Virus record (IMG/VR): IMGVR_UViG_2671180727_000007
Location: 1 to 14,631 of that record
Length of the DNA stretch: 14,631 nt
Direction: 5' to 3' (one strand)
Origin: a virus
Taxonomy: Duplodnaviria > Heunggongvirae > Uroviricota > Caudoviricetes
Shown here piece by piece: positions 1-14,631 of the stretch. The notes under the pieces are model-generated. The model saw nothing but the letters and a program-made list of their open reading frames with translations. It was not told the origin of the DNA and searched no databases. Position numbers and translations under genes: made by a program. Position 1 is the first letter of the stretch; every line of letters starts with the position of its first letter.

Positions 1-98
<98 letters not shown>

Positions 99-129
99 TA
101 ATAAAGAAAACCCGCCTGTTGGCGGGTTT
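99..129 (-). terminator. Intrinsic terminator-like hairpin (stem AAACCCGCC / GGCGGGTTT, loop 117..120) with a T-rich tract on the minus strand; weaker on the plus strand
   Basis: 9-bp GC-rich inverted repeat at 108..116 and 121..129; minus-strand downstream sequence is TTTTCTTTATT. Sits immediately inside the left terminal repeat boundary. Confidence 0.45.
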
Positions 130-404
130 ATAAAGAATTATGGCGCTTGTTGAGGAAGTCACTCCTCTTACGCACTTTGTTTTGCCATGCCGGCAGTTAG
201 CTTCTGCCTTTGACTATTCATGCGGCAACCCCGCATTTCGCCACAATGGGCAATTCACTTTTATGGAATAAACTGGCCGTTGTGTCGATTTAATTAGCAT
301 GGCCTTACCATGCTAATTTATTCAACTTGTACAATCCTACAAATCTATCCACTCAGGCTTACACCGTCTTCGTTATTGTAGAAATGAGGATCATCAGCGT
401 TGAA

Positions 405-620
405 TCAGCTTAGAGCAACGACATTTGCTGCTGCTGGGCCTTTAGCCCCATTCTCGATAGAGAATTCGACCTGCTGGCCTTCTTCCAAAGTGCGGAAATT
501 ATTACTCTGAATTGCCGAAAAATGTACAAAAACATCTTTACTGCCATCAGCAGGAGAAATAAAGCCAAAGCCTTTATCAGAGTTAAACCATTTTACTAAA
601 CCAGTCATTTTATTAGACAT
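405..620 (-). CDS. CspA-family cold-shock protein (70 aa + stop)
   Basis: Translation [38 protein letters not shown]... carries the RNP1/RNP2-like motifs (KGFGFI, VFVHF) of the E. coli CspA/B/G/I family. Internal ATG at 618..620 is preceded by AAGAAGG 7 nt upstream; the 103-aa form in the ORF track is a leader read-through. Confidence 0.88.
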
Positions 621-835
621 AGATATTACCTTCTTAATTTTGTGAGCCACATAGTGCGGCGAGAATTTGATCTGTATAGATTGGGACTTACTTAGGCACT
701 TAAGGAGGAGACTCACGAAGAAGGGAAATCAGAAGATAACACTGAACTGAGACTGCTTTACTAAAACTGCTTACATAAGGTCTGTCTTGCAAACCAACGA
801 TGCTATTAACGCATACCCCTTCTTTTCATGCAACC
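621..835 (-). promoter_or_regulatory. csp promoter and long 5' leader with cold-box-like element
   Basis: On the minus strand: -35 TTGCAT (828..833), 18-nt spacer, -10 TTAATA (804..809), then a leader starting ~TTGGTTTGCAAGACAGACC (779..797) that resembles the cspA cold box as I recall it, giving a ~180-nt 5' UTR as in cold-shock genes. Confidence 0.55.
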
Positions 836-949
836 TTTATTTTTCAAAGATAACTAATTTTTGTCACCATTGGTTTAGTAAACGTTAACGAACCAGACGA
901 TGCCAGACACCTTTACAGAGAACAGATGCCCGCCAATTGGCGGGCATCA

Positions 950-1513
950 TTATGCGCATTTCGCAATATCTTTGCGGCGTTTAATCAGTTTCTCCGCAAT
1001 TTGCTCTATTTCGTTGAAATCTTTCGAGACGCTGTTTCGAAGCGCCAGATTCCATTTACTCAAAGTTCGGGCATTTTGGACAATTTGATCGCCCTCTTTA
1101 AGTCTTCCGTTATTCATGAGCCATTCAGCCACATCAGCCCAATCCCAGAGAGGAGACTGGCCTTTTATGCGTTGTACAGGGCAAGGGAAGTCGCCGCTTC
1201 CGCGCTTACCGTCTTTGAGCAACGCCACTGCCTGGCGAGACAGGTCTGTCAGTTCCGCGATATCGCTTAAGCCCACAAGAGCCGAGTCGACGGATTCAAC
1301 AATTGCACCGATACCGGCTGATTCAATATTGTCGACCGCAGATGCGATAGCTGCATCAAGTGATTGTGCTTCGCGGTCAAATTCTACATAGACGGAGTTT
1401 CCATATGCGCAAATTAGCGCATCGTCACAGCCGTTTTGGTACAGCGCGTCTTCCAGTCCTTCCGTCTCATACGATACGCCTGAGAGCGTCAGAGTGAAGT
1501 TATAAAGCGCCAT
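950..1513 (-). CDS. Hypothetical protein (187 aa); C-terminal region looks helix-turn-helix-like; second gene of a two-gene operon
   Basis: ORF with ATG at 1511..1513 preceded by AGGAAA 4-5 nt upstream; the track's 199-aa form starts at a TTG 12 codons earlier. No family recognised from sequence. Confidence 0.6.
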   Translation of the reverse strand: MALYNFTLTLSGVSYETEGLEDALYQNGCDDALICAYGNSVYVEFDREAQSLDAAIASAVDNIESAGIGAIVESVDSALVGLSDIAELTDLSRQAVALLKDGKRGSGDFPCPVQRIKGQSPLWDWADVAEWLMNNGRLKEGDQIVQNARTLSKWNLALRNSVSKDFNEIEQIAEKLIKRRKDIAKCA

Positions 1514-1573
1514 AGTTTTCCTTTGAAGATAGTTGGACAGTTTCTGCAAAAGGCGGCTAATGCCGCCTTGAAA

Positions 1574-1798
1574 TCATTTACAACGATCAACCATTCGTTT
1601 GATCTGTTTGGCATGGTTTTCGGGATTACCCGGAGTCGACCATACGCTCATTTGGTGAGTTTTGTGTTCACCTTCTGGATTACCGCATCGCAGTCTGCAA
1701 AAACAATGTGCAGCACCACCAGCTGCTACCCAGATCCAGCCTTTACTTAATGCATAGTCAATGGCTGCTTGAATATGCTTATTCGGATGTTGCTTCAT
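1574..1798 (-). CDS. Hypothetical small Cys/His-rich protein (74 aa); first gene of the operon
   Basis: ATG at 1796..1798 with GGAGG SD (complement of 1802..1806) and a consensus promoter immediately upstream; contains an HCFCRLRCG cluster. Family not recognised. Confidence 0.6.
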   Translation of the reverse strand: MKQHPNKHIQAAIDYALSKGWIWVAAGGAAHCFCRLRCGNPEGEHKTHQMSVWSTPGNPENHAKQIKRMVDRCK

Positions 1799-1815
1799 TC
1801 GCCTCCGATAATAGT

Positions 1816-1845
1816 ATTCTATTCACAGTGTTGACATCTGTCAAC
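1816..1845 (-). promoter_or_regulatory. Near-consensus sigma70 promoter (TTGACA-17 bp-TAGAAT) for the minus-strand operon, with the -35 embedded in a 16-bp perfect palindrome GTTGACA-TC-TGTCAAC (1830..1845)
   Basis: -35 is the complement of 1839..1844, -10 the complement of 1816..1821, spacer 17 bp; the palindrome overlapping the -35 is operator-like. Confidence 0.65.
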
Positions 1846-2010
1846 GGCGACTGAATTTCATCCGTTCATGCCACACCCCCATCCATCTCATGTATGTGAC
1901 CTAAAGATGGTCAGCACAGCTTACCAAAATAAGACAACTAATTATCTTCGGTGATCTCAATATTTTCCCCTGAACAAAGTTGACATGACGCCATAAACCC
2001 GTTCTCTGTT

Positions 2011-2019
2011 TGATATAAT
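2011..2019 (+). promoter_or_regulatory. Extended -10 promoter element TGaTATAAT, candidate promoter of the plus-strand recombination operon
   Basis: TG at 2011..2012 and TATAAT at 2014..2019; the -35 at 17-bp spacing is poor (CCATAA), and a TTGACA at 1980..1985 is too far upstream to pair. Confidence 0.4.
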
Positions 2020-2052
2020 TGATACAGATTTTATAAGTAGGAACCTATTAGA

Positions 2053-2484
2053 GTGAACACTGATATTTTTTCTAAAATCATGGCCGATCTGGAGTTCGAC
2101 CGCGACAACCTTGAGGAAGTATGGCGTAAACAGCCACGGCTTTTAATGGAGTATGGGTCAAAACTAGCGCAGGCAGATCGAGATGTCGCAGAGGCAAAAC
2201 TTAACCTTGAAGCTGTTGAAGCAAAGCTATACGACACAGAGCGTAAGAACTTGAGTATGAACGGCATTAAGTTCAACGAGTCTGTACTGGACGCTAAGGT
2301 TAAAACAAACCCACAGTATCTGTCTAAACGGCAGAAGTTGGATGAAGCACGGCACATCGCAGACATATACAAACATGCTGTCGCCGCCTTTTCGCATCGC
2401 CGAGACATGATCGTTCAGGCGTCAAAGATGGCCATCGTTGAATTAGAGCGATTAGGCTCTGAACGCTTTATTACTCCCCGTTGA
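2053..2484 (+). CDS. Hypothetical coiled-coil protein (143 aa), possibly a UvsY-like recombination mediator
   Basis: GTG start at 2053 with AGGAA 9 nt upstream (an internal ATG at 2080 has no SD). Size, predicted helical character and position next to gp32-like and UvsX-like genes; sequence resemblance to T4 UvsY is loose and from memory only. Confidence 0.5.
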   Translation: MNTDIFSKIMADLEFDRDNLEEVWRKQPRLLMEYGSKLAQADRDVAEAKLNLEAVEAKLYDTERKNLSMNGIKFNESVLDAKVKTNPQYLSKRQKLDEARHIADIYKHAVAAFSHRRDMIVQASKMAIVELERLGSERFITPR

Positions 2485-2601
2485 TTTTTGATAGATAATA
2501 AGTAAGTACTGATCTATCATTTAACAGCTCGAAAGAGCCACGAATGAACGAAAGCCCAACGCGCATAGCGCCATCGGCCAAATCACAACAAGGAGAAACA
2601 C

Positions 2602-3630
2602 ATGTCTAAGACATTACTTGATTTGCTTAACAAAACTCGTGAAGACATTGCCGCCAAACGTGGCAACAACGTTGATCTGACTCGCTTAAAAGACGGCGTC
2701 AACTATATCCGCATCTTCCCGAATAAAGACGACCCAAACGGTAAGTTCTTCCAGACTTTCGGTATGCACTACGTTAAGTATCAGAACGAGGAAGGTAAAG
2801 AAGCAACCAACGCTTATATTTGTGAGCAACATACTCACGGTCGCGCTTGTCAGCTATGCGAAATGGTTATGGAAGGTCGCGCTCGTCACAAGGGTAACAA
2901 AGCAATGGAAGAACGCATCGGTCAAATGCGTGCCACTCCTCGCTACCTGGTCAACGGCATTCTTTCTGCTCGTGAGGATTTCGCAGATGCTGAGAAATGC
3001 CAGTTAATCGAGCTGCCGTCTACTGTATTCGATGATATCTGCAAAGCAATCACCGAAGACATCGCTGATGATATCGGCAATCCACTGAGCAAAGAGGAAG
3101 GCTACGCATTCCTGATTAAACGTACTGGCTCTGGTCGCGATACCAAATATGACGTCTCGCCTAAGCGTAAAGTCTACAAAGGCGATATCGAAGATAAATT
3201 CTGGAACACCCAGCATGATCTGATCGCATACGCAAATCAGGCTGATGAAACTCGTCTTCTGTCGACAGTTCGCACTATGGGTCGTCTGATTGGCATCGCT
3301 GCACCAACTGCCGCAGCATCTGCACCAGCAATTTCCTCAACCGCGAAAACATCGGCTGCGGCACTACCTGGATTTGGCTCTGTCACTGGTCATACGGAGG
3401 GTGCGACTGCTGTAGCAACCGCTCACACCCCAGCTTCTGAACCAACCAGTCTGGTTGATGAAGAAATCCTCCGTGCCGTTGAAACTGAATTTAAACCAGA
3501 AGCAAGTTCCGCTGCCGTTGCCGTATCAGTCAAAGAGTCTGAAGCAGTCGCAGCGACATCTGTAGCAACCGCATCTGCGACGGAAGATGAAGGTCTGGAT
3601 GACCTACTGAGAGAGCTGGACTCTCTGTAA
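2602..3630 (+). CDS. gp32-like single-stranded DNA-binding protein with zinc-binding motif and acidic C-terminal tail
   Basis: GGAG SD 7 nt upstream of ATG. Cys74-X8-Cys83-X2-Cys86 with nearby His residues (CEQHTHGRACQLC) resembles the T4 gp32 Zn subdomain; C-terminus TEDEGLDDLLRELDSL is acidic as in SSBs; residues ~231-330 are Ala/Ser/Thr-rich low complexity. Confidence 0.7.
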   Translation: MSKTLLDLLNKTREDIAAKRGNNVDLTRLKDGVNYIRIFPNKDDPNGKFFQTFGMHYVKYQNEEGKEATNAYICEQHTHGRACQLCEMVMEGRARHKGNKAMEERIGQMRATPRYLVNGILSAREDFADAEKCQLIELPSTVFDDICKAITEDIADDIGNPLSKEEGYAFLIKRTGSGRDTKYDVSPKRKVYKGDIEDKFWNTQHDLIAYANQADETRLLSTVRTMGRLIGIAAPTAAASAPAISSTAKTSAAALPGFGSVTGHTEGATAVATAHTPASEPTSLVDEEILRAVETEFKPEASSAAVAVSVKESEAVAATSVATASATEDEGLDDLLRELDSL

Positions 3631-3646
3631 TCCCATTACGTGACCA

Positions 3647-3675
3647 GTAAGGCGTCTACGGACGCCTTACTTTTT
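3647..3675 (+). terminator. Rho-independent terminator after the SSB gene
   Basis: Stem GTAAGGCGTC (3647..3656), loop TACG, GACGCCTTAC (3661..3670), followed by TTTTT. Confidence 0.7.
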
Positions 3676-3690
3676 GGAAGGAATGTACCG

Positions 3691-4635
3691 GTGAATTATC
3701 TCTTCGTAGATGGCAATAGCCTGGGTTATTACCACCAACAATCTGACAAATTGCACAACGGCGAAATGGAAGTACAGGCTGCTTTCGGCTTTGTTAAGAA
3801 CGTCCGTCGTTATGCCTCCATCCTCCATGCCCGACCTATGATTCTTTGGGATGGATTTAGTGACAAGCGTCGCGACTTTTACCCGGACTACAAAGCAAAT
3901 CGCGACGACGATCCTGATATGAAAAAGATGAAGGAAGGCTTTGCTGTCCAGAAGCCATACATCCTCAAAATGATGACCGCGCTTGGTGTTAACCAAATCA
4001 TTGCAAAAGATGCAGAAGCGGATGATCTGGCCGGGCTGCTGGTATCCCGCATGGCACCGCAGCCAACCGTTGAACACATCTATCTGTTAACAGGCGATAG
4101 CGACTGGCTTCAGTTAGTTCGTGAAAACGTAAGCTGGGTAAGCCTGCGTGAAGACGCCAAAAACAAGCAGGTTAATTTTGAGCAATTTGCGGAGCTGACA
4201 GGATTCGCCACGCCTCGCGCATTTTTGGAAGCAAAAGCATTACAAGGCGATAACTCGGACAACATTAGCGGTGTTGGAGGCATTGGTGCTGGCGGTGCGA
4301 AAGAGCTGCTGCATGAATGGGGAAGTGTCGCAACGATGGTACGCGGCATCAACGACGGCTCAATCGTGGTTAATAAAGGGCGTCATAAGACCGCCTTCAA
4401 CAAACTAGCGAAGAATGCCTTCAACGAGAAAACAGGCTGTCGAATGCTCGAAGCGTTCAAGAGAAACATCACGCTAATGAACCTGATTGAGACGAAGTTT
4501 CCGCCTACCGAAATCGAAACAATCAAAGGCAATCGTGACGTGAAAGCATTCGAGCAAATGTGCTACGAGCTGAATTTCCGTTCGTTCCTTGAAGACCTTG
4601 AAGTGTTTGTTCTTCCATTCGAAAGGTATTGCTAA
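3691..4635 (+). CDS. 5'-3' exonuclease / flap endonuclease (T4 RNase H-like, FEN family)
   Basis: Motifs LFVDGNSL, RRDFYPDYKANR (cf. T4 RNase H RRDFAYYYKKNR), AEADDLAG, LLTGDSDW and an H3TH-like GVGGIGAGGA. GTG at 3691 with GGAAGG 9 nt upstream is preferred over the in-frame ATG at 3640, which lies inside the preceding terminator hairpin. Confidence 0.85.
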   Translation: MNYLFVDGNSLGYYHQQSDKLHNGEMEVQAAFGFVKNVRRYASILHARPMILWDGFSDKRRDFYPDYKANRDDDPDMKKMKEGFAVQKPYILKMMTALGVNQIIAKDAEADDLAGLLVSRMAPQPTVEHIYLLTGDSDWLQLVRENVSWVSLREDAKNKQVNFEQFAELTGFATPRAFLEAKALQGDNSDNISGVGGIGAGGAKELLHEWGSVATMVRGINDGSIVVNKGRHKTAFNKLAKNAFNEKTGCRMLEAFKRNITLMNLIETKFPPTEIETIKGNRDVKAFEQMCYELNFRSFLEDLEVFVLPFERYC

Positions 4636-4901
4636 TGCTTAAATCGATTATCAATGGCGCTACAACCACCCCTGCCCAACTAGCAAAAGAGATTGTCTTT
4701 TATCACGGTGAGTACGCTGTCATCGCACTGCCGTCAATTCTAGGCGCTGCCGGAATGAAAGCGACAGATCGCGAGTTTGGATTAGTCAGCGAGCAGGTCG
4801 TAAAAATCCTCGCTCGTGTATCCAGACTCCTTAACCACGATGCGATTGTATTCGATGAATCCGCCGCTTTAAAACGAATCAACGAAACAAAAGGAGCCTG
4901 A
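4635..4901 (+). CDS. Hypothetical protein (88 aa), translationally coupled to the exonuclease gene
   Basis: ATG overlaps the exonuclease stop (TAATG) with GAAAGG 8 nt upstream; ends 2 nt before the recombinase ATG. Confidence 0.5.
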   Translation: MLKSIINGATTTPAQLAKEIVFYHGEYAVIALPSILGAAGMKATDREFGLVSEQVVKILARVSRLLNHDAIVFDESAALKRINETKGA

Positions 4902-4903
4902 TC

Positions 4904-5977
4904 ATGGCAAAAGGAAAATCCGCACTGGCACTTGCTCTGAAAAAGAAAATCGGTAGCAACGACGAAATTCAGAAAGTAACTCATTGGATTGATACAGGCT
5001 TTCCACCGTTAAACAAAGCTATTTCTGGTCGTTACGATGGCGGCTTCCCATGTGGTCGTATCGTCGAAGTATTCGGTCCTCCAAGTGCAGGGAAAACGTT
5101 CCTTGCAACAGCAGCGATGATCTCCGCTCAAAAACAAGATGGTCTGGCGGTATTCCTCGATCATGAAAACAGTTTTGACGTTGGCCTGGCTGTCGCCAAT
5201 GGCCTGAACGCAGATGAGGATGACGGTCAGTGGGTATACAAGCAGCCAGATACCTTCGAAGACTCTGTAGAGTTGATCGGCACAATACTTAAATTGGTTC
5301 GTGATGAAGAGCTTATCCCCGAATCAGCACCAATCTGTATCGTGGCTGACTCTCTTGCGTCTATGGTTCCGAACTCCAAAGCCGAGAAGTTCGAAAAGAT
5401 GGCTGAAGGCACTGCCAAAGACAAAGATCAGCTAAACATGAACGACAATACGGCACTGGCTCGTGCGACGAGTGCGAACTTCCCTACTCTGGCTTTGTGG
5501 GCACGCAAATACAACGCCTGCATCATCTTCTTGAATCAGGTTCGCACAAAAATCGGTGTAATGTTTGGCGACCCTACTACGTCGCCAGGTGGAGATTCAC
5601 CGAAGTTCTACGCTTCTGTACGTATCCGTCTTGGTGCATCGGTGATGAAGGATGGTAAAGAGAAGATCGGCCAGGACGTAGGCGCAGAATGCATCAAAAA
5701 CAAAGTTGCACCACCGTATGGCAAATGCACCTGGAAATTCTACTTCGATCCTACTCGTGGCCTCGACGTTATCGAATCGCTCGTCGAGTACATGCTGGAA
5801 GAAGGATACCTGCCAAAGAACGCCAGCGGGCGAGTTGAAATTGGTGACAAGAAATACACCAAATCGCAGATCGTCGAGATGTATCGGGAGAAGCCACTGG
5901 CTGAAATCATTGCGGCTTTGCAGGCAATCGACGACCGAAGAGCAAAAGACAACCCCACCGAGTCAGTAGAAGAGTAA
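4904..5977 (+). CDS. RecA/UvsX-family recombinase
   Basis: Walker A GPPSAGKT (RecA: GPESSGKT), AVFLDHENSFD, Walker B-like ICIVADSLASM; GGAG SD 7 nt upstream of ATG. Confidence 0.8.
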   Translation: MAKGKSALALALKKKIGSNDEIQKVTHWIDTGFPPLNKAISGRYDGGFPCGRIVEVFGPPSAGKTFLATAAMISAQKQDGLAVFLDHENSFDVGLAVANGLNADEDDGQWVYKQPDTFEDSVELIGTILKLVRDEELIPESAPICIVADSLASMVPNSKAEKFEKMAEGTAKDKDQLNMNDNTALARATSANFPTLALWARKYNACIIFLNQVRTKIGVMFGDPTTSPGGDSPKFYASVRIRLGASVMKDGKEKIGQDVGAECIKNKVAPPYGKCTWKFYFDPTRGLDVIESLVEYMLEEGYLPKNASGRVEIGDKKYTKSQIVEMYREKPLAEIIAALQAIDDRRAKDNPTESVEE

Positions 5978-5982
5978 ACACA

Positions 5983-6006
5983 AGGCGTCCACAGGACGCC
6001 TTTTTT
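5983..6006 (+). terminator. Rho-independent terminator after the recombinase gene
   Basis: Stem AGGCGTCC (5983..5990), loop ACA, GGACGCCT (5994..6001), then TTTTTT. Confidence 0.75.
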
Positions 6007-6011
6007 ATCTC

Positions 6012-6040
6012 TTGAAAATATATAAGCACTTACTTATTAT
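6012..6040 (+). promoter_or_regulatory. Sigma70-like promoter TTGAAA-17 bp-TATTAT upstream of the membrane/SPFH operon
   Basis: -35 at 6012..6017, -10 at 6035..6040, 30 bp upstream of the ATG at 6070. Confidence 0.5.
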
Positions 6041-6069
6041 TTTCGCATAACAACCACATAGGAAAACAC

Positions 6070-6270
6070 ATGATCAAAATCTATCTATTGGCAGTAGCCA
6101 CAGGCCTTTCAGTGGCTCTCATCTACGGTTTACTGGTTCCGTCGCTGATTTCTACCAAGAGTGATTTAGCCGTCATGTTTGGAGTTATCGTTGGTTTTGG
6201 TGCTCCTGTAATCGGTCTTATTGCTGGTCGTAAGTTTATCAACTCACTAATCAAAGCAAAGGGGAAATAA
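6070..6270 (+). CDS. Small membrane protein with two predicted TM helices (66 aa)
   Basis: Two hydrophobic stretches (LLAVATGLSVALIYGLLV; VMFGVIVGFGAPVIGLIAG); AGGAAA SD; ends 3 nt before the SPFH gene. Confidence 0.55.
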   Translation: MIKIYLLAVATGLSVALIYGLLVPSLISTKSDLAVMFGVIVGFGAPVIGLIAGRKFINSLIKAKGK

Positions 6271-6273
6271 GTA

Positions 6274-7104
6274 ATGAAGAAAGGTTTACTTGCAGTTGCT
6301 CTGGCGGCTATTTGCACAATGGGTCTTACTGGCTGTGATCGCGTGGAGCCTGGATACGTTGGCATCAAAGTAAACAAATTAGGTGAAGACAAAGGGATTG
6401 GTGAAGTGGTTGGCGTTGGTCGCCAATGGACAGGTCTTAACACCGAACTTTACGTATTCCCGACCTTCAAACAAATGAAGACCTACGACGAGCCGTTCAC
6501 ATTCCAGATGAGTGACGGTACTGCTATTGGTCACAAAATTGGCGTTGCGTATCTGGTTAATCGTGACAAGGTAACGACGGTGTTCCAGACCTATCGCAAA
6601 GGCGTAGACGATATCACCGAATCAGATCTGCGTCAGAAAATTGCCGACTCTCTAAACCGTTTGGCCAGCCGTATGACCACTGACTCATTTATCGACGGTG
6701 GTAAGGCACAATTGCTGGACAACGCACTGAAAGATATTCAGAAAGAGATGTCTCCGGTTGGTATTGAGGTACTGAGCCTGTCATGGGTTGGAAAGCCTGA
6801 TTACCCAAAAACTGTCATTGAATCTATTAACGCCAAAGTAACGGCTAACCAGCGTACTCTGCAACGTCAGCAGGAAGTTGAACAACGTAAAGCTGAGGCG
6901 AATATGCTACGTGAACAGGCTAATGGTGAAGCTGATGCTATCCGTGCTCGTGCGCAAGCAGAAGCAGACGCCATTCGTCTGCGCGGTGAAGCTCTGCGTC
7001 AAAACCCGAACGTTATGGAACTGGAAGCCATCAATAAATGGAATGGCCAGTTACCGCAGTACATGACTCAAGGGGCTAACACTCCTTTCATTACAGTGAA
7101 ATAA
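6274..7104 (+). CDS. SPFH/band-7 (prohibitin/HflK-like) domain lipoprotein
   Basis: N-terminal signal peptide with lipobox LTGC; central SPFH-like region; C-terminal coiled coil with AEADAIR repeats typical of stomatin/HflKC proteins. Confidence 0.75.
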   Translation: MKKGLLAVALAAICTMGLTGCDRVEPGYVGIKVNKLGEDKGIGEVVGVGRQWTGLNTELYVFPTFKQMKTYDEPFTFQMSDGTAIGHKIGVAYLVNRDKVTTVFQTYRKGVDDITESDLRQKIADSLNRLASRMTTDSFIDGGKAQLLDNALKDIQKEMSPVGIEVLSLSWVGKPDYPKTVIESINAKVTANQRTLQRQQEVEQRKAEANMLREQANGEADAIRARAQAEADAIRLRGEALRQNPNVMELEAINKWNGQLPQYMTQGANTPFITVK

Positions 7105-7120
7105 CTCCCCTAAAAAGTTC

Positions 7121-7145
7121 AGGCGTCCAGTTGGACGCCTTTTTT
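7121..7145 (+). terminator. Rho-independent terminator after the SPFH gene
   Basis: Stem AGGCGTCC (7121..7128), loop AGTT, GGACGCCT (7133..7140), then TTTTT; same stem as the terminator at 5983. Confidence 0.75.
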
Positions 7146-7195
7146 ATCGCAATTATCTTATTAAGAAAACAATTTGTTTAAAAGGATAAGAAAAC

Positions 7196-7621
7196 ATGAC
7201 AGCTATTAAGAAACTCTACGATGCCGCAAACGTGGCTCTGGATGTTATTGATGATGAAGTAGCAAAAGGCTTTCCTGAACCTGATTGGGCGCATCAGCTA
7301 CGAAACGCTATCGCAGAAATGACCCCACCAGATCCAACCCCCGACGAGACAGACTGGCAGCGATTCATCCGTATGTACGCTCAGGAAATAGGTCCAACGC
7401 CAACGGCAGAGCAGGCAATGCTGCTGAAATACTTCAAAGAGGCGGGAGAGGATTTACCAATTGATGACTCAGCATATTGGTTCCACTGCGCATGGCGTAA
7501 GTATGACGTGATATTCACACAAGGCATGGGAAGCAAAGATATGGTTGTGTGGCATCTACTCCATATAGACACAGCCGTTGACAGAGTTATTGAACAGTTT
7601 TTCCCTAAACAAGAAGATTGA
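7196..7621 (+). CDS. Hypothetical acidic protein (141 aa)
   Basis: ORF with AGGA SD 8 nt upstream; Asp/Glu/Pro-rich; no recognisable family. Confidence 0.6.
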   Translation: MTAIKKLYDAANVALDVIDDEVAKGFPEPDWAHQLRNAIAEMTPPDPTPDETDWQRFIRMYAQEIGPTPTAEQAMLLKYFKEAGEDLPIDDSAYWFHCAWRKYDVIFTQGMGSKDMVVWHLLHIDTAVDRVIEQFFPKQED

Positions 7622-7676
7622 TCGCCTATTCATAACTAACAAAATAAGTAAACACTAACCACAAAAGGAAAAACAC

Positions 7677-7952
7677 ATGAGAGTTTTAGTTCGAATCGTT
7701 ACCAGCACTGTCTATGACGTGTTTCCGCTTTTTATGGTCAAAGCCGATGGCCTTAACGACGAAGAAACTGACGCGCTGATCCAGCGTATTCTCGTTGAAT
7801 ATACAGGTCATGACGCTGATTCAGTGATGGTTGATGATGATGGTGTTTGTTGGCATAACGGCAACTGTTGGTACGTAGAAGAGACTCAACAAATCAGTGA
7901 TGAAGATGCCGAACATCTTGAGCGTATTTTAAGCATCAGCACTTTTGAGTGA
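7677..7952 (+). CDS. Hypothetical highly acidic small protein (91 aa)
   Basis: ORF preceded by the conserved AAGGAAAAACACATG initiation context; roughly 24% Asp+Glu. Confidence 0.55.
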   Translation: MRVLVRIVTSTVYDVFPLFMVKADGLNDEETDALIQRILVEYTGHDADSVMVDDDGVCWHNGNCWYVEETQQISDEDAEHLERILSISTFE

Positions 7953-7991
7953 GTTTACAGTAAAATTTATATAAGTTAGTATCTACCTATC

Positions 7992-8171
7992 ATGAAGATT
8001 TTTATTGAATACTTGTTACTCATCGTTTCAATAGCTTTTGTCATCGACTGCATTTTCACTGGTGTCATTCGTAAAGTCTTTTCCCCGGTGCACGACGTAG
8101 TCATAAACGCTTTGGCTATCGTGCTCGTATTTAATTCAGCATTTGATGTAATCAAAGAGGTGGCAGCATGA
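7992..8171 (+). CDS. Putative small hydrophobic membrane protein (59 aa), below the ORF-track size cut-off
   Basis: My own translation: MKIFIEYLLLIVSIAFVIDCIFTGVIRKVFSPVHDVVINALAIVLVFNSAFDVIKEVAA; stop overlaps the next ATG (ATGA). No clear SD. Confidence 0.4.
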   Translation: MKIFIEYLLLIVSIAFVIDCIFTGVIRKVFSPVHDVVINALAIVLVFNSAFDVIKEVAA

Positions 8172-8503
8172 AGGCCATCCCATTCGCGCTGTTGTTCCTT
8201 TCTTCGATCGTTGTGGCCGACACCACTGTTTATCAGTGTGAAATGTCTGTAGCCGACGTTAAGAATGGCGCTCTTACCGACGTCATAAAAGCACCATATG
8301 GAGCGATGGTCGTAGACAGCGGCGACCAGTTCTATGTTGTGCGTGACGATCGAGTGTTGTCATCCCCATATCTCACAAATCGTAATGGCAAATTAACCGG
8401 CGTCGGAGAAGACCACTTCGTATACAACAAATACAAGGGCTTCTATGGCGTTCACGCTTCTCAGCAAAGCTACCTTTTCGATGACTGCAAGGAGGTTGGA
8501 TAA
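8168..8503 (+). CDS. Hypothetical secreted protein (111 aa) with N-terminal signal peptide
   Basis: MKAIPFALLFLSSIVVA-DTT has a signal-peptide profile; GAGG SD upstream. Confidence 0.6.
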   Translation: MKAIPFALLFLSSIVVADTTVYQCEMSVADVKNGALTDVIKAPYGAMVVDSGDQFYVVRDDRVLSSPYLTNRNGKLTGVGEDHFVYNKYKGFYGVHASQQSYLFDDCKEVG

Positions 8504-8715
8504 TGGCATTAACACTGGCAGGTCTGGAAATCGAGAAAACAAGCGGCTACTGGCGTGCTAAGGGTTTCAAGCAGCCTGGCATTCTTGAGCGTCTGGAACG
8601 TGAAGATGGGTATATCGTCCACCAGCGGCGTGAATGGCGTATGTACGATCCAGAAACAGGAAAACTGACTACAAAAGCCGGAACACTTTGGGGTCTGTTG
8701 AAGAAAATACACTAA
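8503..8715 (+). CDS. Hypothetical protein (70 aa), translationally coupled
   Basis: ATG overlaps the previous stop (TAATG); AGGAGG SD 9 nt upstream. Confidence 0.5.
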   Translation: MALTLAGLEIEKTSGYWRAKGFKQPGILERLEREDGYIVHQRREWRMYDPETGKLTTKAGTLWGLLKKIH

Positions 8716-8722
8716 TAGCACC

Positions 8723-9205
8723 AACCACTGCGGTGAGTAGTCTACTCACCGCATTCGTATCCAGCTCATTATCCACTGTAGTCAGTAACAAAACCTTCCT
8801 ACATATCTGCTAACCACTGTAGCGAGTAGACAGCCTTTCATTCGCATCAAACAACCACTATGGTGAGTATTGGAGTGAGATGTCCAGCGGGTATCCACTA
8901 TGGTGAGTAAGCCTTTGCTGTTTTCAGTGGATATCCACTCGCCACAGTGGATACGCTCAAAGATGAGGGCGACAACAACCACTATAGACAGTAAATTTTC
9001 CAAGATACCCAGTGACCACTAACCTCGCAGCCCTTGTTTCATCAGTGTTAGTGATCACTAACATTTAATTCAGTATTTGCATTCTACTGCCTACAGTGGT
9101 TATCAACAGATAACGATACTCACTATAGTGGATAGCGAATTACAGATATAAGTAAGGCTCACTACAGTGGATAGTGAGCCTTACTACTAACTACAGTGGT
9201 TGGGC
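8723..9205. repeat. Iteron array downstream of repA (incA-like control locus): about 8 copies of core AACCACTNTRGTGAGTA at ~40-bp spacing, then 4 copies in the opposite orientation (CTAYAGTGGWT), around a 16-bp perfect palindrome GTTAGTGATCACTAAC (9047..9062)
   Basis: CCACT cores at 8725, 8773, 8814, 8856, 8895, 8935, 8979, 9016; AGTGG cores at 9095, 9127, 9166, 9195; the same core as the upstream iterons. Confidence 0.8.
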
Positions 9206-10260
9206 TATTTGCGAGTCTTTGCCTTGCGCAACTCTTCGAGAAGCGCCAGTTCTTCTTTACTCAACATGACCATTTTGCCTTCTTTTTCGTCAGGCACAAC
9301 GTCGATAATGTCATCTTGATTCTCATCTGGGAGGCTATATTCCGTCTCATCATTATCGATTTTTGTTGATATTTGTGCCTGGCGTAACTTTGGCCGCCTA
9401 TAGTGGATGACGAAGTAGACCGAGTTTCCGCGCTTAACTTCCGTGTAATCGAGATATCCTATCTCTCGCAGCTGTTCCATAGCCTTTCTTACCGTCGCAT
9501 TCTGAGTAATAGTGCGACTTGTCAGATTAAGTCTGGCGCGTAAACGGGCTAGTGATATTGGTGCCGGATCAGGCGGCAAACTTTCAATAAAAGTATAAAG
9601 CGCCTGAGCGGATTCTTTTCTTGAGAGTTCGTTTATAGCCCGGAGTTGCAGAAGAACCTTTTTGTCGAACTGGTAGAGTTCGAAAATCTTGGGATCTGCT
9701 TTCAGTTCGACCGTATCGTGCTTGACACTATATTTTGCCGTTTGCACAAGATGCGTTACGTAAAACTCATCAGAGCCTTTGCTACGGAACGAGATGGTAT
9801 TTGTGGCAATACGGCTTAGCGAACTGTCCAGGCGTTTGCGTAACTTCGCTGATGACCTGGCGGTCGGAATGCCACACAGCCTTACAAACTCAACGAACGG
9901 CAACGTGACAGTATCGCCAACGACCTTGTGTTTGGCAAACGCGTGGATTATTCCCACCCACGTTTTAAAGTCGTTATCCATATCAAGCCGAAGGCCAGAG
10001 ATCCTTATGTCTTCGTACCCTTCGGCTTTTGCCAGAGACAGCTGTTTGAGTTCAGCAGAGGCATCCATAGAGACCATTTGCCCCTTTCTTCCTCTGGATG
10101 TCGATTTCAGCGTCGGAACGAAGAGGCCCAGACGCATCAAAGCAACAGGCTGAACAGTGTTATTAGTGTTAGGAACCAACGTAACAACTTCGCCTGTCTT
10201 TTTATCTGTTTCTGAAAATGCTTCAACGATCGCTATGTTTTTATTGCCGTTTTCGCTCAT
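9205..10260 (-). CDS. repA: Iteron-binding plasmid replication initiator RepA (RepFIB/P1 RepA-like family)
   Basis: 351-aa ORF flanked by iteron arrays. N-terminal [17 protein letters not shown] and later blocks ([30 protein letters not shown]; [29 protein letters not shown]; IGYLDY) match my recollection of RepFIB/P1-type RepA; not verified by search. Confidence 0.85.
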
Positions 10261-10305
10261 TCCAAATGTCTCTTGTTATTCGACGGCTTTGGTGGCCTTT
10301 GCTGA

Positions 10306-10428
10306 TTACAGTGGATAGTAGCACTCATCACAGCGGTTATCCTACCGTCTATAGTGGTTTTTCTCCTCTCTATAGTGGTTGCTTTGCTCCCTATAGTGGA
10401 TTATTCGCTCTCTATAGTGGATATCGAT
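10306..10428. repeat. Origin-proximal iteron array: six tandem ~21-bp direct repeats (consensus CTCTATAGTGGWT...)
   Basis: TATAGTGG at 10350, 10371, 10392, 10413 (exact 21-bp period), plus ACAGTGG at 10308 and ACAGCGG at 10331. Confidence 0.85.
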
Positions 10429-10470
10429 CATGTCTGAAGGCAGATGGCACAACGGTTTGAGGTGGGCGGG

Positions 10471-10520
10471 GATCTTATTGGGTCTTTATGGGTCTCTTTG
10501 GTTCTCTTTGTGATCTGAAT
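10471..10520. repeat. Five tandem 10-bp repeats (GATCTTATTG / GGTCTTTATG / GGTCTCTTTG / GTTCTCTTTG / TGATCTGAAT), DUE/13-mer-like, only two retaining GATC
   Basis: Exact 10-bp periodicity visible directly in the sequence. Confidence 0.7.
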
Positions 10521-10534
10521 TACTGGATCGGGCC

Positions 10535-10590
10535 TGTGGATAAAAATCAGAGAATTTCAAGAACAGGTAACTCTACTCTTCTGTGGATAT
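10535..10590. promoter_or_regulatory. DnaA boxes: TGTGGATAA (10535..10543, perfect consensus) and TGTGGATAT (10582..10590, 8/9)
   Basis: Match to the DnaA box consensus TTATCCACA / TGTGGATAA; further 8/9 matches at 10677..10685 (TTATCCATA) and 10908..10916 (AGTGGATAA). Confidence 0.7.
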
Positions 10591-10699
10591 TTAAGGACAT
10601 AAGAATCATGACTAAGAGTAGAGTTTAAAATATATCTATGTATATCAGTATGTTAATGAAGAATTAAGTCATTAAGTTATCCATAAAAGACAATGTGCT

Positions 10700-10810
10700 C
10701 TACTCTCTACAGTGGATATATACAGCTCTCCAGAGTGGTTGTTTTACTCTTCATAGCGGTTATTCAGCTCTCTACAGAGGTTTCTTTGCTCTCCATAGTG
10801 GATGGCAACA
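10700..10810. repeat. Second iteron array: five ~21-bp direct repeats, more degenerate
   Basis: CTCTACAGTGGATATATACAG, CTCTCCAGAGTGGTTGTTTTAC, TCTTCATAGCGGTTATTCAG, CTCTCTACAGAGGTTTCTTTG, CTCTCCATAGTGGATGGCAAC. Confidence 0.75.
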
Positions 10811-10848
10811 CCCTTTCAGACCAGTAACCGCAACGGCTAGAGGCGATC

Positions 10849-10910
10849 GGGGATCTCTTTGGATCTTCTATTTGATCTTACTTGGGATCTCTTATTTGGA
10901 TCTATCCAGT
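10849..10910. repeat. GATC-rich 11-13-bp repeats resembling oriC 13-mers (GATCTnTTnTTTT): five GATC sites
   Basis: GATC at 10852, 10862, 10874, 10886, 10899 within GATCTCTTTGG, GATCTTCTATTT, GATCTTACTTGG, GATCTCTTATTTG, GATCTATCC; followed by a DnaA-box-like palindrome TATCCAGTGGATA. Confidence 0.7.
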
Positions 10911-11003
10911 GGATAACTGGGATAAGTAAAACAGGCAAATGCAGATTAAGGTATGCCTAATGAGTTATCGTAGCATCGGCCAATAACTACTGAAAAAACG
11001 ATT

Positions 11004-11648
11004 ATGGATCTAAAACGCACGCGCTGGGTTCGTCGTCTTGAGGACGGCTCCTACACTATCGAATCAAATTCCAACCTGAATAAGCAGAAGTTACTTTGTG
11101 ATATCTGCGGTATAGCGGCGAAGTGCCCGATCTACGAAACCAGAATTAAACTTGATAAGGCTGGTGTGAACTTTCATTTGAATAGTTGTATCAGGTACGT
11201 TCCATTGCTCGCATTTCGTAAACCGATCATCGGATTGGATGCGCCCTACTTCAACACACTCCGTTCAGGGGTAACGTGGCGAGATCGTTTATCACCAGAC
11301 AAGCTGATTTGCCTCGTATCCGCAGACACAGGGAAAATCATCCGTTTTGGGAAAGTAGACAAGGTTTACTCAGGCCCAGTTGACGAGATGTTGCGGAAAC
11401 ACAGCCGGTTTAATCACCTCTGCATGGGTGGTGAGAAAATCGAGAAGGTTGAAGAAGTGATCCGCAAATCCTACGGACACTTCCTGACCAAAGATAGCCT
11501 GCTCACTGCAATCTACATCAGACATGTAAAACGTGAGTTCGACCTTGAATACCATAGCGAAGAAGAACTGAACCTTGTCGATCCACGTCCTAAAGCTGGC
11601 GTCATAAGCATAAATGCAGCGCGTAAAAAGCCCACTGACGCGCTGTAA
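11004..11648 (+). CDS. Hypothetical protein (214 aa) with an N-terminal Cys cluster (CDICGIAAKC)
   Basis: Long ORF, weak SD; no family recognised. Confidence 0.5.
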   Translation: MDLKRTRWVRRLEDGSYTIESNSNLNKQKLLCDICGIAAKCPIYETRIKLDKAGVNFHLNSCIRYVPLLAFRKPIIGLDAPYFNTLRSGVTWRDRLSPDKLICLVSADTGKIIRFGKVDKVYSGPVDEMLRKHSRFNHLCMGGEKIEKVEEVIRKSYGHFLTKDSLLTAIYIRHVKREFDLEYHSEEELNLVDPRPKAGVISINAARKKPTDAL

Positions 11649-11903
11649 CCCTCCAGATCGTATATTGGCGTAGATAGAATCTACGCCCCCCTCAAAATAG
11701 CTCTCATAGCGTTCTACAGTGATCCTGTCTTATTTTTAGTCATACAGACAAGCAAAGTTGCGCCACGATAAATAGGTATATACTTACTTATAAATTTTGT
11801 ATATTAAGGCGCTCGTTTCATTCCTAACATACCGTTATGCATAGTTGTTTACCTCCTCATTGCTCTTAGAATTTGTATCAAAATAACCACAAAGGAAAAA
11901 CAC

Positions 11904-12989
11904 ATGACTTTGCCATACGGCGTCATTTCTGACTGCCACTACCACAAATGGGATGCGTTCTCCACGACGAACGCTGAGGGGCTTAACTCCAGACTTGAAA
12001 TACAGTTGGAAGCAACGAAAGAAGCAGCCATCGCCATGAAGAAGGCCGGTTGTAAGTACATGTTGGTTGCCGGTGATACATTTCACGTCCGAGGAACTGT
12101 GTCCCCTTCTGTTTTGCATTACGTAACTGAAACGTACAAGTGGATTATCAACGAGCTTGATCTGACAGTAGTAATGCTGGCCGGTAATCACGATCTTGAA
12201 ACCAACGATTCAGTATATAGCGCCAACGCAGCAGCATCGCTGAGTTCTATCGGCGTGGTAATCGTATGTGGCAAGCGCCCACACTCAATAAAAATTGGCG
12301 ATGTGACTGTCCACCTGATTAGCTGGCGTAACAATCATGCGGAGCTTATCAGCGATCTGAAAGCATTACGTAAGAGCGTAGAAGGTGATAATCATGACGT
12401 TGTTATCCATACATCCATTAACAAAGCCATTCCAACAATGCCTGACGTCGGTATCGATGCGCAGGAGTTAAAGGATATCGGCTTTCGTCTCGTGCTTAGT
12501 GGGCATTACCACAACCACAAAGAGGTCATTCCTGGAGTTATCAGTGTCGGTGCACTGACTCATCAAAATTGGGGAGATGTTGGATCTCTGGCTGGCTACA
12601 TGATCGTAAACCCGGACGGCAGTTTCAGTCACTACGAAACCAGTGCGCCTAAATTCATTAACCTGGAAGATGATGTTGCTGATGACCAAATTCGCGGCAA
12701 CTACGTGCGTTTCCGCGCCGTAATTGAGAACGATGAAGAAGGCATTAAGTACCAGAACATCCTCAAAACAATGGGTGCAAAAGGTGTCGTGTGCAACTTC
12801 ATCCGTAAGTCATCAATGATGGAAGGTACAGCCAGCACAACTGAAACCAGCAAAATCGATAGCCTGGGAGAGTCGGTATCTGCTTATTGCAAGATTGTCC
12901 ACGATACTGACGGCGGATTTGATCTGAGCAAATTGGATATTTTGTGTCAGGAAATCCTCACCGAAGCGGAGAGTTCGGAGGCTGTGTGA
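11904..12989 (+). CDS. sbcD: Mre11/SbcD-like calcineurin-type phosphoesterase nuclease (T4 gp47-like)
   Basis: Metallophosphatase motifs in order: SDCHYH (D-x-H), AGDTFH (GD), LAGNHD (GNHD), SGHYHNH (GH-x-H); preceded by the AAGGAAAAACACATG initiation context. Confidence 0.85.
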   Translation: MTLPYGVISDCHYHKWDAFSTTNAEGLNSRLEIQLEATKEAAIAMKKAGCKYMLVAGDTFHVRGTVSPSVLHYVTETYKWIINELDLTVVMLAGNHDLETNDSVYSANAAASLSSIGVVIVCGKRPHSIKIGDVTVHLISWRNNHAELISDLKALRKSVEGDNHDVVIHTSINKAIPTMPDVGIDAQELKDIGFRLVLSGHYHNHKEVIPGVISVGALTHQNWGDVGSLAGYMIVNPDGSFSHYETSAPKFINLEDDVADDQIRGNYVRFRAVIENDEEGIKYQNILKTMGAKGVVCNFIRKSSMMEGTASTTETSKIDSLGESVSAYCKIVHDTDGGFDLSKLDILCQEILTEAESSEAV

Positions 12990-13218
12990 AGCAAAGTCGT
13001 TATGGGAGCTTTCGAGACTTTGCCATCACGATGAAAAGACTTGAACGAGGCCAGACGGTGATGTTTCACAAGCCCTACCCGCCACAAGGAAATCCCGTAG
13101 CGTTTTATCTTGGAAGGTTAACAAGAAAAGGCGTATTGAGGCGCAGATCCTTCCCGGCGCATACGGAGTTCAGATTGAAAGAAGGCCAAAAGCTAACACG
13201 CGGTATCAGAGGTGTTAT

Positions 13219-13222
<4 letters not shown>
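12986..13222 (+). CDS. Small, highly basic hypothetical protein (78 aa) coupled between the sbcD-like and sbcC-like genes
   Basis: GTG at 12986 overlaps the sbcD stop (GTGA) with GGAGG 5 nt upstream; its stop overlaps the sbcC ATG (ATGA). About 18 Lys/Arg against 4 Asp/Glu. The track's 92-aa form starts inside sbcD. Confidence 0.5.

Positions 13223-14631
<1,409 letters not shown>

Follow-up and report, generated by a model that had tools for sequence, protein, structure and literature searches.

The window analysed here is a 14,631-nucleotide stretch of viral DNA (Caudoviricetes; IMG/VR record IMGVR_UViG_2671180727_000007, positions 1 to 14,631), and judged from its sequence it is an SSU5-like phage-plasmid of the SSU5/pHCM2/pMT1 type. 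The genes neighbouring its replicon (a gp32-like SSB, RecA, Cra and SbcCD) are of the SSU5-like phage-plasmid type. About 1.8 kb around the origin region is 99.9% identical to about 60 non-mobilizable, IncFIB-typed plasmids of about 110 kb from E. coli, E. albertii and Shigella, is equally 99.9% identical to Escherichia phage Cyrano, and shares about 81-83% identity with phage SSU5, Salmonella Typhi pHCM2 and Yersinia pestis pMT1. Some SSU5-like IncFIB-typed phage-plasmids carry resistance genes, e.g. pECOH89 (PMC3999498). The replicon consists of the following features:

8720 to 9202, both orientations: downstream (third) iteron array resembling P1 incA and the RepFIB E-K repeats, with at least 10 iterons
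9205 to 10260, minus strand: repA, a Rep3/RepFIB-family initiator of 351 aa (Pfam Rep3_N, 1.3e-10, and Rep3_C)
10299 to 10427, plus strand: proximal iteron array, six direct iterons at a 21-22-bp period (cores at 10308, 10330, 10351, 10372, 10393 and 10414)
10428 to 10467, plus strand: proximal linker, variable in sequence and fixed in length (68-80% identity to the pHCM2 group)
10468 to 10543, plus strand: proximal origin core, repeats R1-R5 and then a DnaA box (nhmmer profile score 54)
10544 to 10697, plus strand: spacer between the modules, 72% AT (10550-10697), evolving near-neutrally
10698 to 10806, plus strand: distal iteron array, five direct iterons at a 21-23-bp period (cores at 10709, 10732, 10753, 10774 and 10795)
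10807 to 10843, plus strand: distal linker, with the same 57-bp geometry as the proximal linker
10844 to 10925, plus strand: distal origin core, six GATC and then tandem DnaA-type boxes (nhmmer profile score 76)
11004 to 11648, plus strand: conserved backbone ORF of 214 aa at the outer edge of the replicon, annotated with an ASCH domain in phage Cyrano

The product of repA is 91% identical in amino-acid sequence to the RepA of pHCM2, pMT1 and SSU5, 61-63% identical to that of classical RepFIB, and 47.5% identical to P1 RepA. Nothing is annotated between repA and the gene at 11004 in any record inspected, an Rfam search over 8600-11100 returned no RNA family, and a Pfam search with the 11004 to 11648 ORF gave no match. 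Two small plus-strand ORFs that run across the repeats (10218 to 10460 and 10695 to 10916) were taken as spurious, because they are annotated in none of the inspected records. A weak sigma-70-like promoter match on the repA strand (10427->10400, 9 of 12 positions), the sole match found there, lies inside the outermost proximal iteron, and the proximal iteron array is probably the repA operator, by analogy with P1 incC.

Iterons were located by pattern and profile searches, a generic periodic-repeat detector being too insensitive. Downstream of repA, the pattern search found five iterons per strand plus a weaker copy near 8726, with cores ACAGTGG/ATAGTGG at 8779(-), 8820(-), 8861(-), 8901(-), 8944(+), 8985(-), 9093(+), 9125(+), 9164(+) and 9193(+). 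This array, which corresponds to P1 incA or to the RepFIB E-K repeats, was missing from the initial annotation of the window.

Upstream of repA lie two copies of one module in the same orientation, a proximal copy at 10299-10543 and a distal copy at 10698-10925. Reading away from repA, each copy has 5-6 iterons at a 21-bp period, a linker that sets a 57-bp iteron-to-core spacing, repeats of 10-13 bp, and a DnaA box. Local alignment of the proximal with the distal module scored 66, against 17.5 +/- 2.4 for shuffled sequences (z = 20). The initial annotation had described the succession of iterons, short repeats and DnaA box as occurring twice, and both modules were indeed located where it had placed them. 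In the proximal core, GGATCT (10470), GGGTCT (10480), GGGTCT (10490), GGTTCT (10500) and TGATCT (10510) follow one another at an exact 10-bp period, as had been noted together with the non-GATC variants, and GGATCG stands further on at 10525. These units are assigned as R1 (GGATCT), two GGGTCT of which one is an extra unit, GGTTCT, R4 (TGATCT) and R5 (GGATCG), and the core ends in a perfect DnaA box, TGTGGATAA, at 10535-10543. The proximal copy had been said to have lost most of its GATC sites; the loss is real but amounts to half, since GATC is still present in 3 of the 6 units (at 10471, 10512 and 10526).

The distal core contains six GATC (R0-R5, at 10845, 10852, 10862, 10874, 10886 and 10899) and not the five originally counted, and it ends in tandem DnaA-type boxes, AGTGGATAA (at 10908) and CTGGGATAA. 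With six GATC in 58 bp, where 0.22 would be expected, it forms the densest GATC cluster of the window (Poisson P = 1.4e-7 per site). GATC spacings are 7-13 bp in the distal module and 41 and 14 bp in the proximal one. The short repeats had also been described as A/T-rich, which did not hold: the two repeat blocks are 54% and 60% AT, compared with 54% for the whole window, and the A/T-rich part of the region is the spacer. In addition to its base composition, the spacer has two DnaA-like boxes, at 10583 (TGTGGATAT) and 10677 (TTATCCATA), and a perfect 12-bp inverted repeat (10569-10580 / 10614-10625).

For comparison with known origins, we took from each of twelve replicons the segment that starts with the linker, includes the repeats and closes with the DnaA box, and turned the alignment of these segments into a core profile, whose common frame is CAAGGCCTG..(GATC)GGGGATCT..GGATCT..GATCT..GGATCT..TTATTGGATC..GTGGATAA(GTGGATAA). 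In nhmmer searches the profile matched both cores of the window as well as the P1 oriR core (E = 3e-20 for P1), which upholds the original proposal of a tandemly duplicated origin module with each copy homologous to P1 oriR. Because the core profile matches, the parts stand in the P1 order, and the RepA proteins share the identities given above, each module is, on sequence grounds, a full homologue of a P1/RepFIB origin. The annotated order in P1 (DnaA box, five Dam sites, five incC iterons holding PrepA, repA, and nine incA iterons) is that of one module here; the two initiators belong to the same family, and P1 likewise has a G+C-rich linker between its Dam-site repeats and its iterons. P1 differs in having a single module (one profile match) instead of two in tandem, in its 19-bp iterons of other sequence, and in the place of its non-GATC repeat, which is R4 (GGACC) in P1, whereas the proximal copy in the window is without GATC at R2 and R3. 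Since the working origin of P1 has GGACC at R4, one non-GATC unit is compatible with function.

Classical RepFIB (P307, F, pO157) has the closest RepA that has been studied experimentally, and its single core has five GATC and a DnaA box. It has 21-bp iterons both upstream of the gene (BCDD', the origin) and downstream (E-K, handcuffing control) (PMC11983097). Unlike the window, it has upstream a single set of iterons and a single core, which lies about 280-380 bp from repA, and no second module was found in it. When the window is set against the P1/RepFIB type feature by feature, it has a Rep3-family initiator related to P1 and RepFIB RepA, about five direct iterons at about two helical turns directly upstream of repA (six, 10299-10427), an iteron array 3' of repA (incA / repeats E-K), and about five GATC repeats with one or more DnaA boxes at a fixed distance (56-57 bp) from the iterons. 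A single origin module per replicon was not found, the window having two full modules. The replicon is, as read from these features, a P1/RepFIB-type iteron replicon that departs from the type, among the features compared, in module number.

pMT1 of Y. pestis, pHCM2 of S. Typhi and phage SSU5, which belong to the same replicon clade, share the two-module layout, and in the cores they do so base for base; the spacer (63-66%) and the distal core (78%) of the window have diverged from theirs, and neither module is annotated in the pMT1, pHCM2 and SSU5 records. To see how far the layout extends, we scanned one genome per species (80 loci with a related RepA) plus plasmid records. The profile found two cores upstream of repA at 43 loci, including Yersinia, Kluyvera, Buttiauxella, Rahnella, Erwinia, Pantoea and Cedecea, with the proximal core starting about 145-205 bp and the distal core about 450-570 bp from repA. 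Conservation of the duplication in related replicons had been put forward as a check on it, and within the RepA clade the pair is the rule. A single core was found in P1, classical RepFIB, FIB(K), Pantoea eucrina-type replicons and Photorhabdus; the module is likewise single in SSU5-like plasmids of Klebsiella, Shigella and Cronobacter, whose Rep and iterons are different. Single-module relatives, which the initial annotation had named as evidence against a duplication, thus do exist, but they were seen only in outgroups (P1, classical RepFIB, FIB(K), the P. eucrina type and the Klebsiella SSU5-like plasmids).

When the RepA tree is rooted on P1, replicons with a single core fall at its base, and the remainder make up one group with proximal iterons and a distal module. 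The pair is old and clade-wide, not recent. One old duplication is the simplest reading, and it rests on parsimony because the core identities carry no clear proximal orthology: masked identities across clades gave no clear orthology signal (about 65% proximal-proximal and about 65% proximal-distal). The start-to-start distance between the modules ranges from about 276 to 400 bp between clades, and no helical phasing of this distance is obvious across them.

The possibility that the pair arose by juxtaposition and not by duplication, through an incoming repA cassette that landed with its own origin beside a resident SSU5-backbone origin core, has one observation in its favour. The distal core with its outer flank (10834-10971) shares about 80% identity with the single core of Klebsiella-type SSU5-like plasmids, which lies in the same place and is served by another Rep and other iterons. 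The distal iterons, however, are of the resident RepA's type and not ACCGCTGACAGCATA, and non-phage plasmids of Pantoea, Rahnella and Erwinia, with unrelated outer flanks (34-48% identity past the core), have the two-module layout too. We regard juxtaposition as barely credible.

Compared with the pHCM2 group, the window has 62.7% identity at the four-fold degenerate sites of repA; by non-coding segment, identity is 94-95% in the proximal core, 89% in the proximal iterons, 84-86% in the distal iterons, 78% in the distal core and 63-66% in the spacer. In this comparison the proximal core surpasses every other stretch of the intergenic region in conservation; its identity exceeds the four-fold baseline with a binomial P of 6e-11, that of the distal core with a P of 2e-3. 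Similar results were obtained in five clades taken separately: cores (75-95%) and iteron arrays (73-93%) of both copies were higher than the spacer, linkers and outer flank (34-90%), and also above each clade's own four-fold baseline (49-80%). In the SSU5 and Rahnella clades conservation is higher in the proximal core than in the distal one, and in the three Pantoea/Erwinia clades the reverse holds. The geometry is kept as well. Counted from the last iteron core to the GATC of R1, 40 of 43 proximal modules have a spacing of 57 bp and 41 of 43 distal modules one of 56-57 bp, although the sequence of the linker drifts; a relic or a bare operator would not be expected to retain such spacing. Both copies are thus under purifying selection.

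These results bear on the view that the proximal copy is a non-functional relic in slow decay. The graded series among relatives, from near-complete proximal cores (Pantoea group A, 4-5 GATC) through truncated (Xenorhabdus) to absent, would suit such a relic, as would a proximal GATC count lower than the distal count in 42 of the 43 loci (it was never higher). Conservation far above the synonymous-site baseline in five clades and an invariant iteron-to-core spacing argue against it, as do the altered units themselves, the GGGTCT and GGTTCT units being invariant across the SSU5 clade and GGGTCT at R2 being common to Rahnella. A relic is accordingly very improbable, and for this lineage the suggestion in the initial annotation of a decaying duplicate that still titrates RepA is contradicted by the 94-95% identity of the proximal core against 62.7%, by its conservation above neutral in five clades, and by the exact 57-bp spacing.

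The loss of GATC from the proximal core is specific to position. At the 43 two-core loci every distal repeat from R1 to R5 has GATC (43/43 each), and the proximal repeats have it at R1 in 43/43, at R2 in 0/43, at R3 in 18/43, at R4 in 43/43 and at R5 in 39/43. Because the profile detects only proximal cores that still resemble cores, the high retention at proximal R1, R4 and R5 is partly a matter of ascertainment. At R2 the proximal variants are GAAC, GGTC, GTTC, GGCC, GGAC and GACC, always GNNC. The repeat frame, GGNTCT, persists in the altered proximal units; in the window, single changes turned GGATCT into GGGTCT or GGTTCT. R2 may owe its state to a single loss that was inherited and then drifted within GNNC; as the independent lineages number about seven and R2 is GNNC throughout, the lack of a central AT is not significant evidence of selection against a Dam site. 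Two origins of different Dam/SeqA sensitivity, the other suggestion made at the outset, is a viable reading and fits the position-specific loss of GATC.

The two modules have also been lost unequally. The proximal core is truncated in Xenorhabdus and gone, for example, from Pantoea sp. KPR_PJ, P. deserta, Phytobacter, Franconibacter, Scandinavium and a Tolumonas MAG, the iterons remaining in each case. It has thus been lost or truncated in several separate subclades, in all of which the distal module is complete, and the distal module is present at no fewer than 15 loci that are without a proximal core. The distal module is complete in every lineage except one, a Buttiauxella MAG (L067), where the proximal module is intact and decay has left the distal one with a single iteron and three scattered GATC. 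Such reciprocal loss fits elements or origins that are partly redundant.

We propose, with moderate confidence and largely by analogy, that the distal module is the main, canonical origin and that the proximal module combines the repA operator with a Dam-thinned auxiliary origin or control module. The distal module is a candidate for the canonical origin because of its near-universal completeness, its DnaA boxes on both flanks (38 of 57 loci), and its position in the place of the Klebsiella-type single core. As in P1 and RepFIB, one RepA would serve both modules and bind all three iteron arrays. The distal module would be methylated by Dam and open to SeqA sequestration. The proximal array, which lies 40-50 bp from the repA start codon, would act as an autoregulatory operator, because it is situated on the putative repA promoter region. 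The proximal module may still assemble an origin-like complex of RepA and DnaA, with fewer and poorly phased GATC. SeqA requires paired hemimethylated sites, and for this reason the proximal module should bind SeqA less well; its complex would be an auxiliary origin with less tendency to be sequestered. It could also provide, along with the downstream array, a cis pairing (handcuffing) partner in copy-number control, the downstream array being expected to handcuff the origins as in P1 and RepFIB.

A simpler scheme would make the distal module the only origin. The proximal module would then never fire and would be a repA operator joined to a pseudo-origin that titrates RepA and DnaA, handcuffs the real origin, and serves as a second cis incompatibility or control locus. 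It would account for proximal cores that are always without GATC at R2 and often at R3, and for several lineages having lost the proximal core while the proximal iterons and the distal module persist; in classical RepFIB and P1, extra iterons are indeed negative through handcuffing (PMC11983097). A pure operator, on the other hand, leaves unexplained the fixed 57-bp spacing, the 75-95% conservation of the proximal core itself, and the kept DnaA box and repeat frame. It also has to reckon with the Buttiauxella MAG that retains the proximal module alone, and with the working origin of P1, in which a non-GATC repeat (R4) is no obstacle. This scheme is a real possibility, though we consider it the lesser one.

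The roles could also be reversed, with the proximal module as the main origin adjoining repA as in P1, and the GATC-rich distal copy auxiliary or regulatory, for example a SeqA-binding sink or a back-up origin. The proximal module lies where the single origins of P1, FIB(K) and P. eucrina-type replicons lie (about 165-260 bp from repA), its core has a perfect DnaA box and is the best-conserved segment in the SSU5 and Rahnella clades, and it is the only module left in the Buttiauxella MAG. This arrangement is nevertheless quite unlikely as a general one: the distal module is complete with 5/5 GATC in 43/43 loci, persists at the 15 or more loci without a proximal core, and has the better-conserved core in the three Pantoea/Erwinia clades. 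In the SSU5 and Rahnella clades, given their better-conserved proximal core, the proximal module could be the main origin.

A further reading is that the two modules work as two gears. The distal origin, with its full set of Dam sites, would be gated by SeqA and fire once per cycle, and the Dam-thinned proximal one would escape sequestration and re-fire, its firing being coupled to occupancy of the repA promoter. We consider this unlikely. If it were true, proximal re-firing could serve establishment after infection or transfer, recovery of copy number, or amplification of the phage-plasmid.

More than one initiation site dependent on one initiator protein is found in R6K (alpha/beta/gamma) and F (ori1/ori2). 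The extra origins of R6K are without a full iteron array and need gamma in cis; here, by contrast, each module is a complete copy. Chromosome 2 of Vibrio cholerae has a Dam-dependent iteron origin, ori2, that is sequestered by SeqA, and an adjoining block of initiator sites (ori2-inc) modulates handcuffing (PMC6090056). The replicon described here would resemble this arrangement (ori2-min + ori2-inc) in joining a putatively Dam/SeqA-governed iteron origin to an adjacent regulatory block of initiator sites, and differs in that the V. cholerae initiator, RctB, is unrelated, its GATC lie inside the iterons, and its regulatory block is not a copy of the origin. No description of a double origin module was found in the inspected records or the searchable literature, a coverage outside which lie the original pMT1 papers and one 2026 heteroresistance preprint. 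Each part is standard by itself. What is unexpected is a tandem origin that is under selection throughout a clade and has lost Dam sites at specific positions.

Replicons of this clade maintain the plasmids pMT1 (plague) and pHCM2 (Typhi), the SSU5-like IncFIB phage-plasmids, and large plasmids of Pantoea, Erwinia and Rahnella. For such plasmids, a conserved second module with thinned Dam sites alters how copy-number control, incompatibility and Dam/SeqA coupling are to be modelled. The design of curing cassettes depends on which iteron block inhibits (PMC11983097), and the second module bears on such design. The pair is also a natural experiment on the role of GATC in P1-type origins: because one core is present in two states on a single molecule, its dependence on methylation is directly testable. 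As a minor observation, an ungapped overlay of the window on phage Cyrano breaks upstream of repA, where the two differ by indels.

The core of the P1 origin (AF234172, 182-277 nt upstream of repA) can be aligned with the window-type origin cores, each repeat with its counterpart. The five annotated Dam sites of P1 correspond to repeats R0-R3 and R5 of the window-type core, while repeat 4 of P1 reads GGACC, not GATC. DnaA boxes on both flanks of the origin have been reported for P1, and the distal module of the window type is arranged likewise, because it has an additional box on the repA side of its iterons:

10677: inner-flank DnaA box of the distal module, repA side of the distal iterons

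Among the related loci, 38 of 57 have a DnaA box within about 110 bp of the distal iterons on the repA side, mostly in the sense TTATCCACA.

The SSU5-like plasmids of Klebsiella, Shigella and Cronobacter encode a different Rep with iterons ACCGCTGACAGCATA, yet their single GATC/DnaA core and its flank, as far as the 214-aa ORF, share about 80% identity with the window's distal core (window 10834-10971; L004 2480-2600; L006; L007). These sequence comparisons therefore suggest that replicon cassettes are swapped on the SSU5-like backbone and that the cassettes are joined to it between iterons and core.

A decayed distal module beside an intact proximal module was found in a single locus, where the distal module is reduced to one iteron and three scattered GATC:

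L067: Buttiauxella MAG, DASXXQ010000321.1, 1-470 nt upstream of repA

An ordinary two-module replicon (L057) is present in this MAG as well. A natural variant in iteron number is found in E. fergusonii pRHB41-C20_2 (L017), of which the proximal array lacks exactly one 21-bp iteron, leaving five vs six:

Alignment A1, columns 112-132: proximal-array iteron missing from L017

Between the modules, the spacer (10550-10697) has an identity of merely 63-66% to the pHCM2 group and is far more A/T-rich in the window lineage, with a maximum of 80% AT at 10621-10680. It contains two further features:

10569-10580 / 10614-10625: perfect 12-bp inverted repeat
10656->10629, minus strand: promoter-like site (10/12 match) directed at the proximal module and repA

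The segment ATAAAAATCAG..AATT (10544-10560), immediately beyond the DnaA box of the proximal module, has almost no variation within the SSU5 clade. It is similar to an IHF site, with one or two mismatches to WATCAANNNNTTR. Copy-up mutations in the region upstream of repA may have been described in a bioRxiv preprint on phage-plasmid-mediated heteroresistance in E. coli (10.64898/2026.08.19.745698), the text of which has repA 41 times, "upstream of repA" 3 times and copy number 20 times.

Downstream of repA lies a further, large array, of which the iterons are irregularly spaced (30-150 bp):

8720-9202, about half of the copies on each strand: iteron array, at least 10 copies

It is similar to incA of P1 and to the E-K repeats of RepFIB. 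Just beyond the repA stop codon, a 21-nt imperfect palindrome (9144-9164 / 9172-9192) encloses the iteron at 9164.

A simple overlay of the window and Cyrano breaks down upstream of repA. A single 2340-nt gene is annotated in phage Cyrano and plasmid p.CT29-P1 (L101 3733-6072, vs window 3640-5977). The Cyrano annotation names its product RecA, that of CT29 a LAGLIDADG-family homing endonuclease. In the window, this stretch is instead split among the ORFs 3640..4635, 4629..4901 and 4904..5977, which lie in three different frames.
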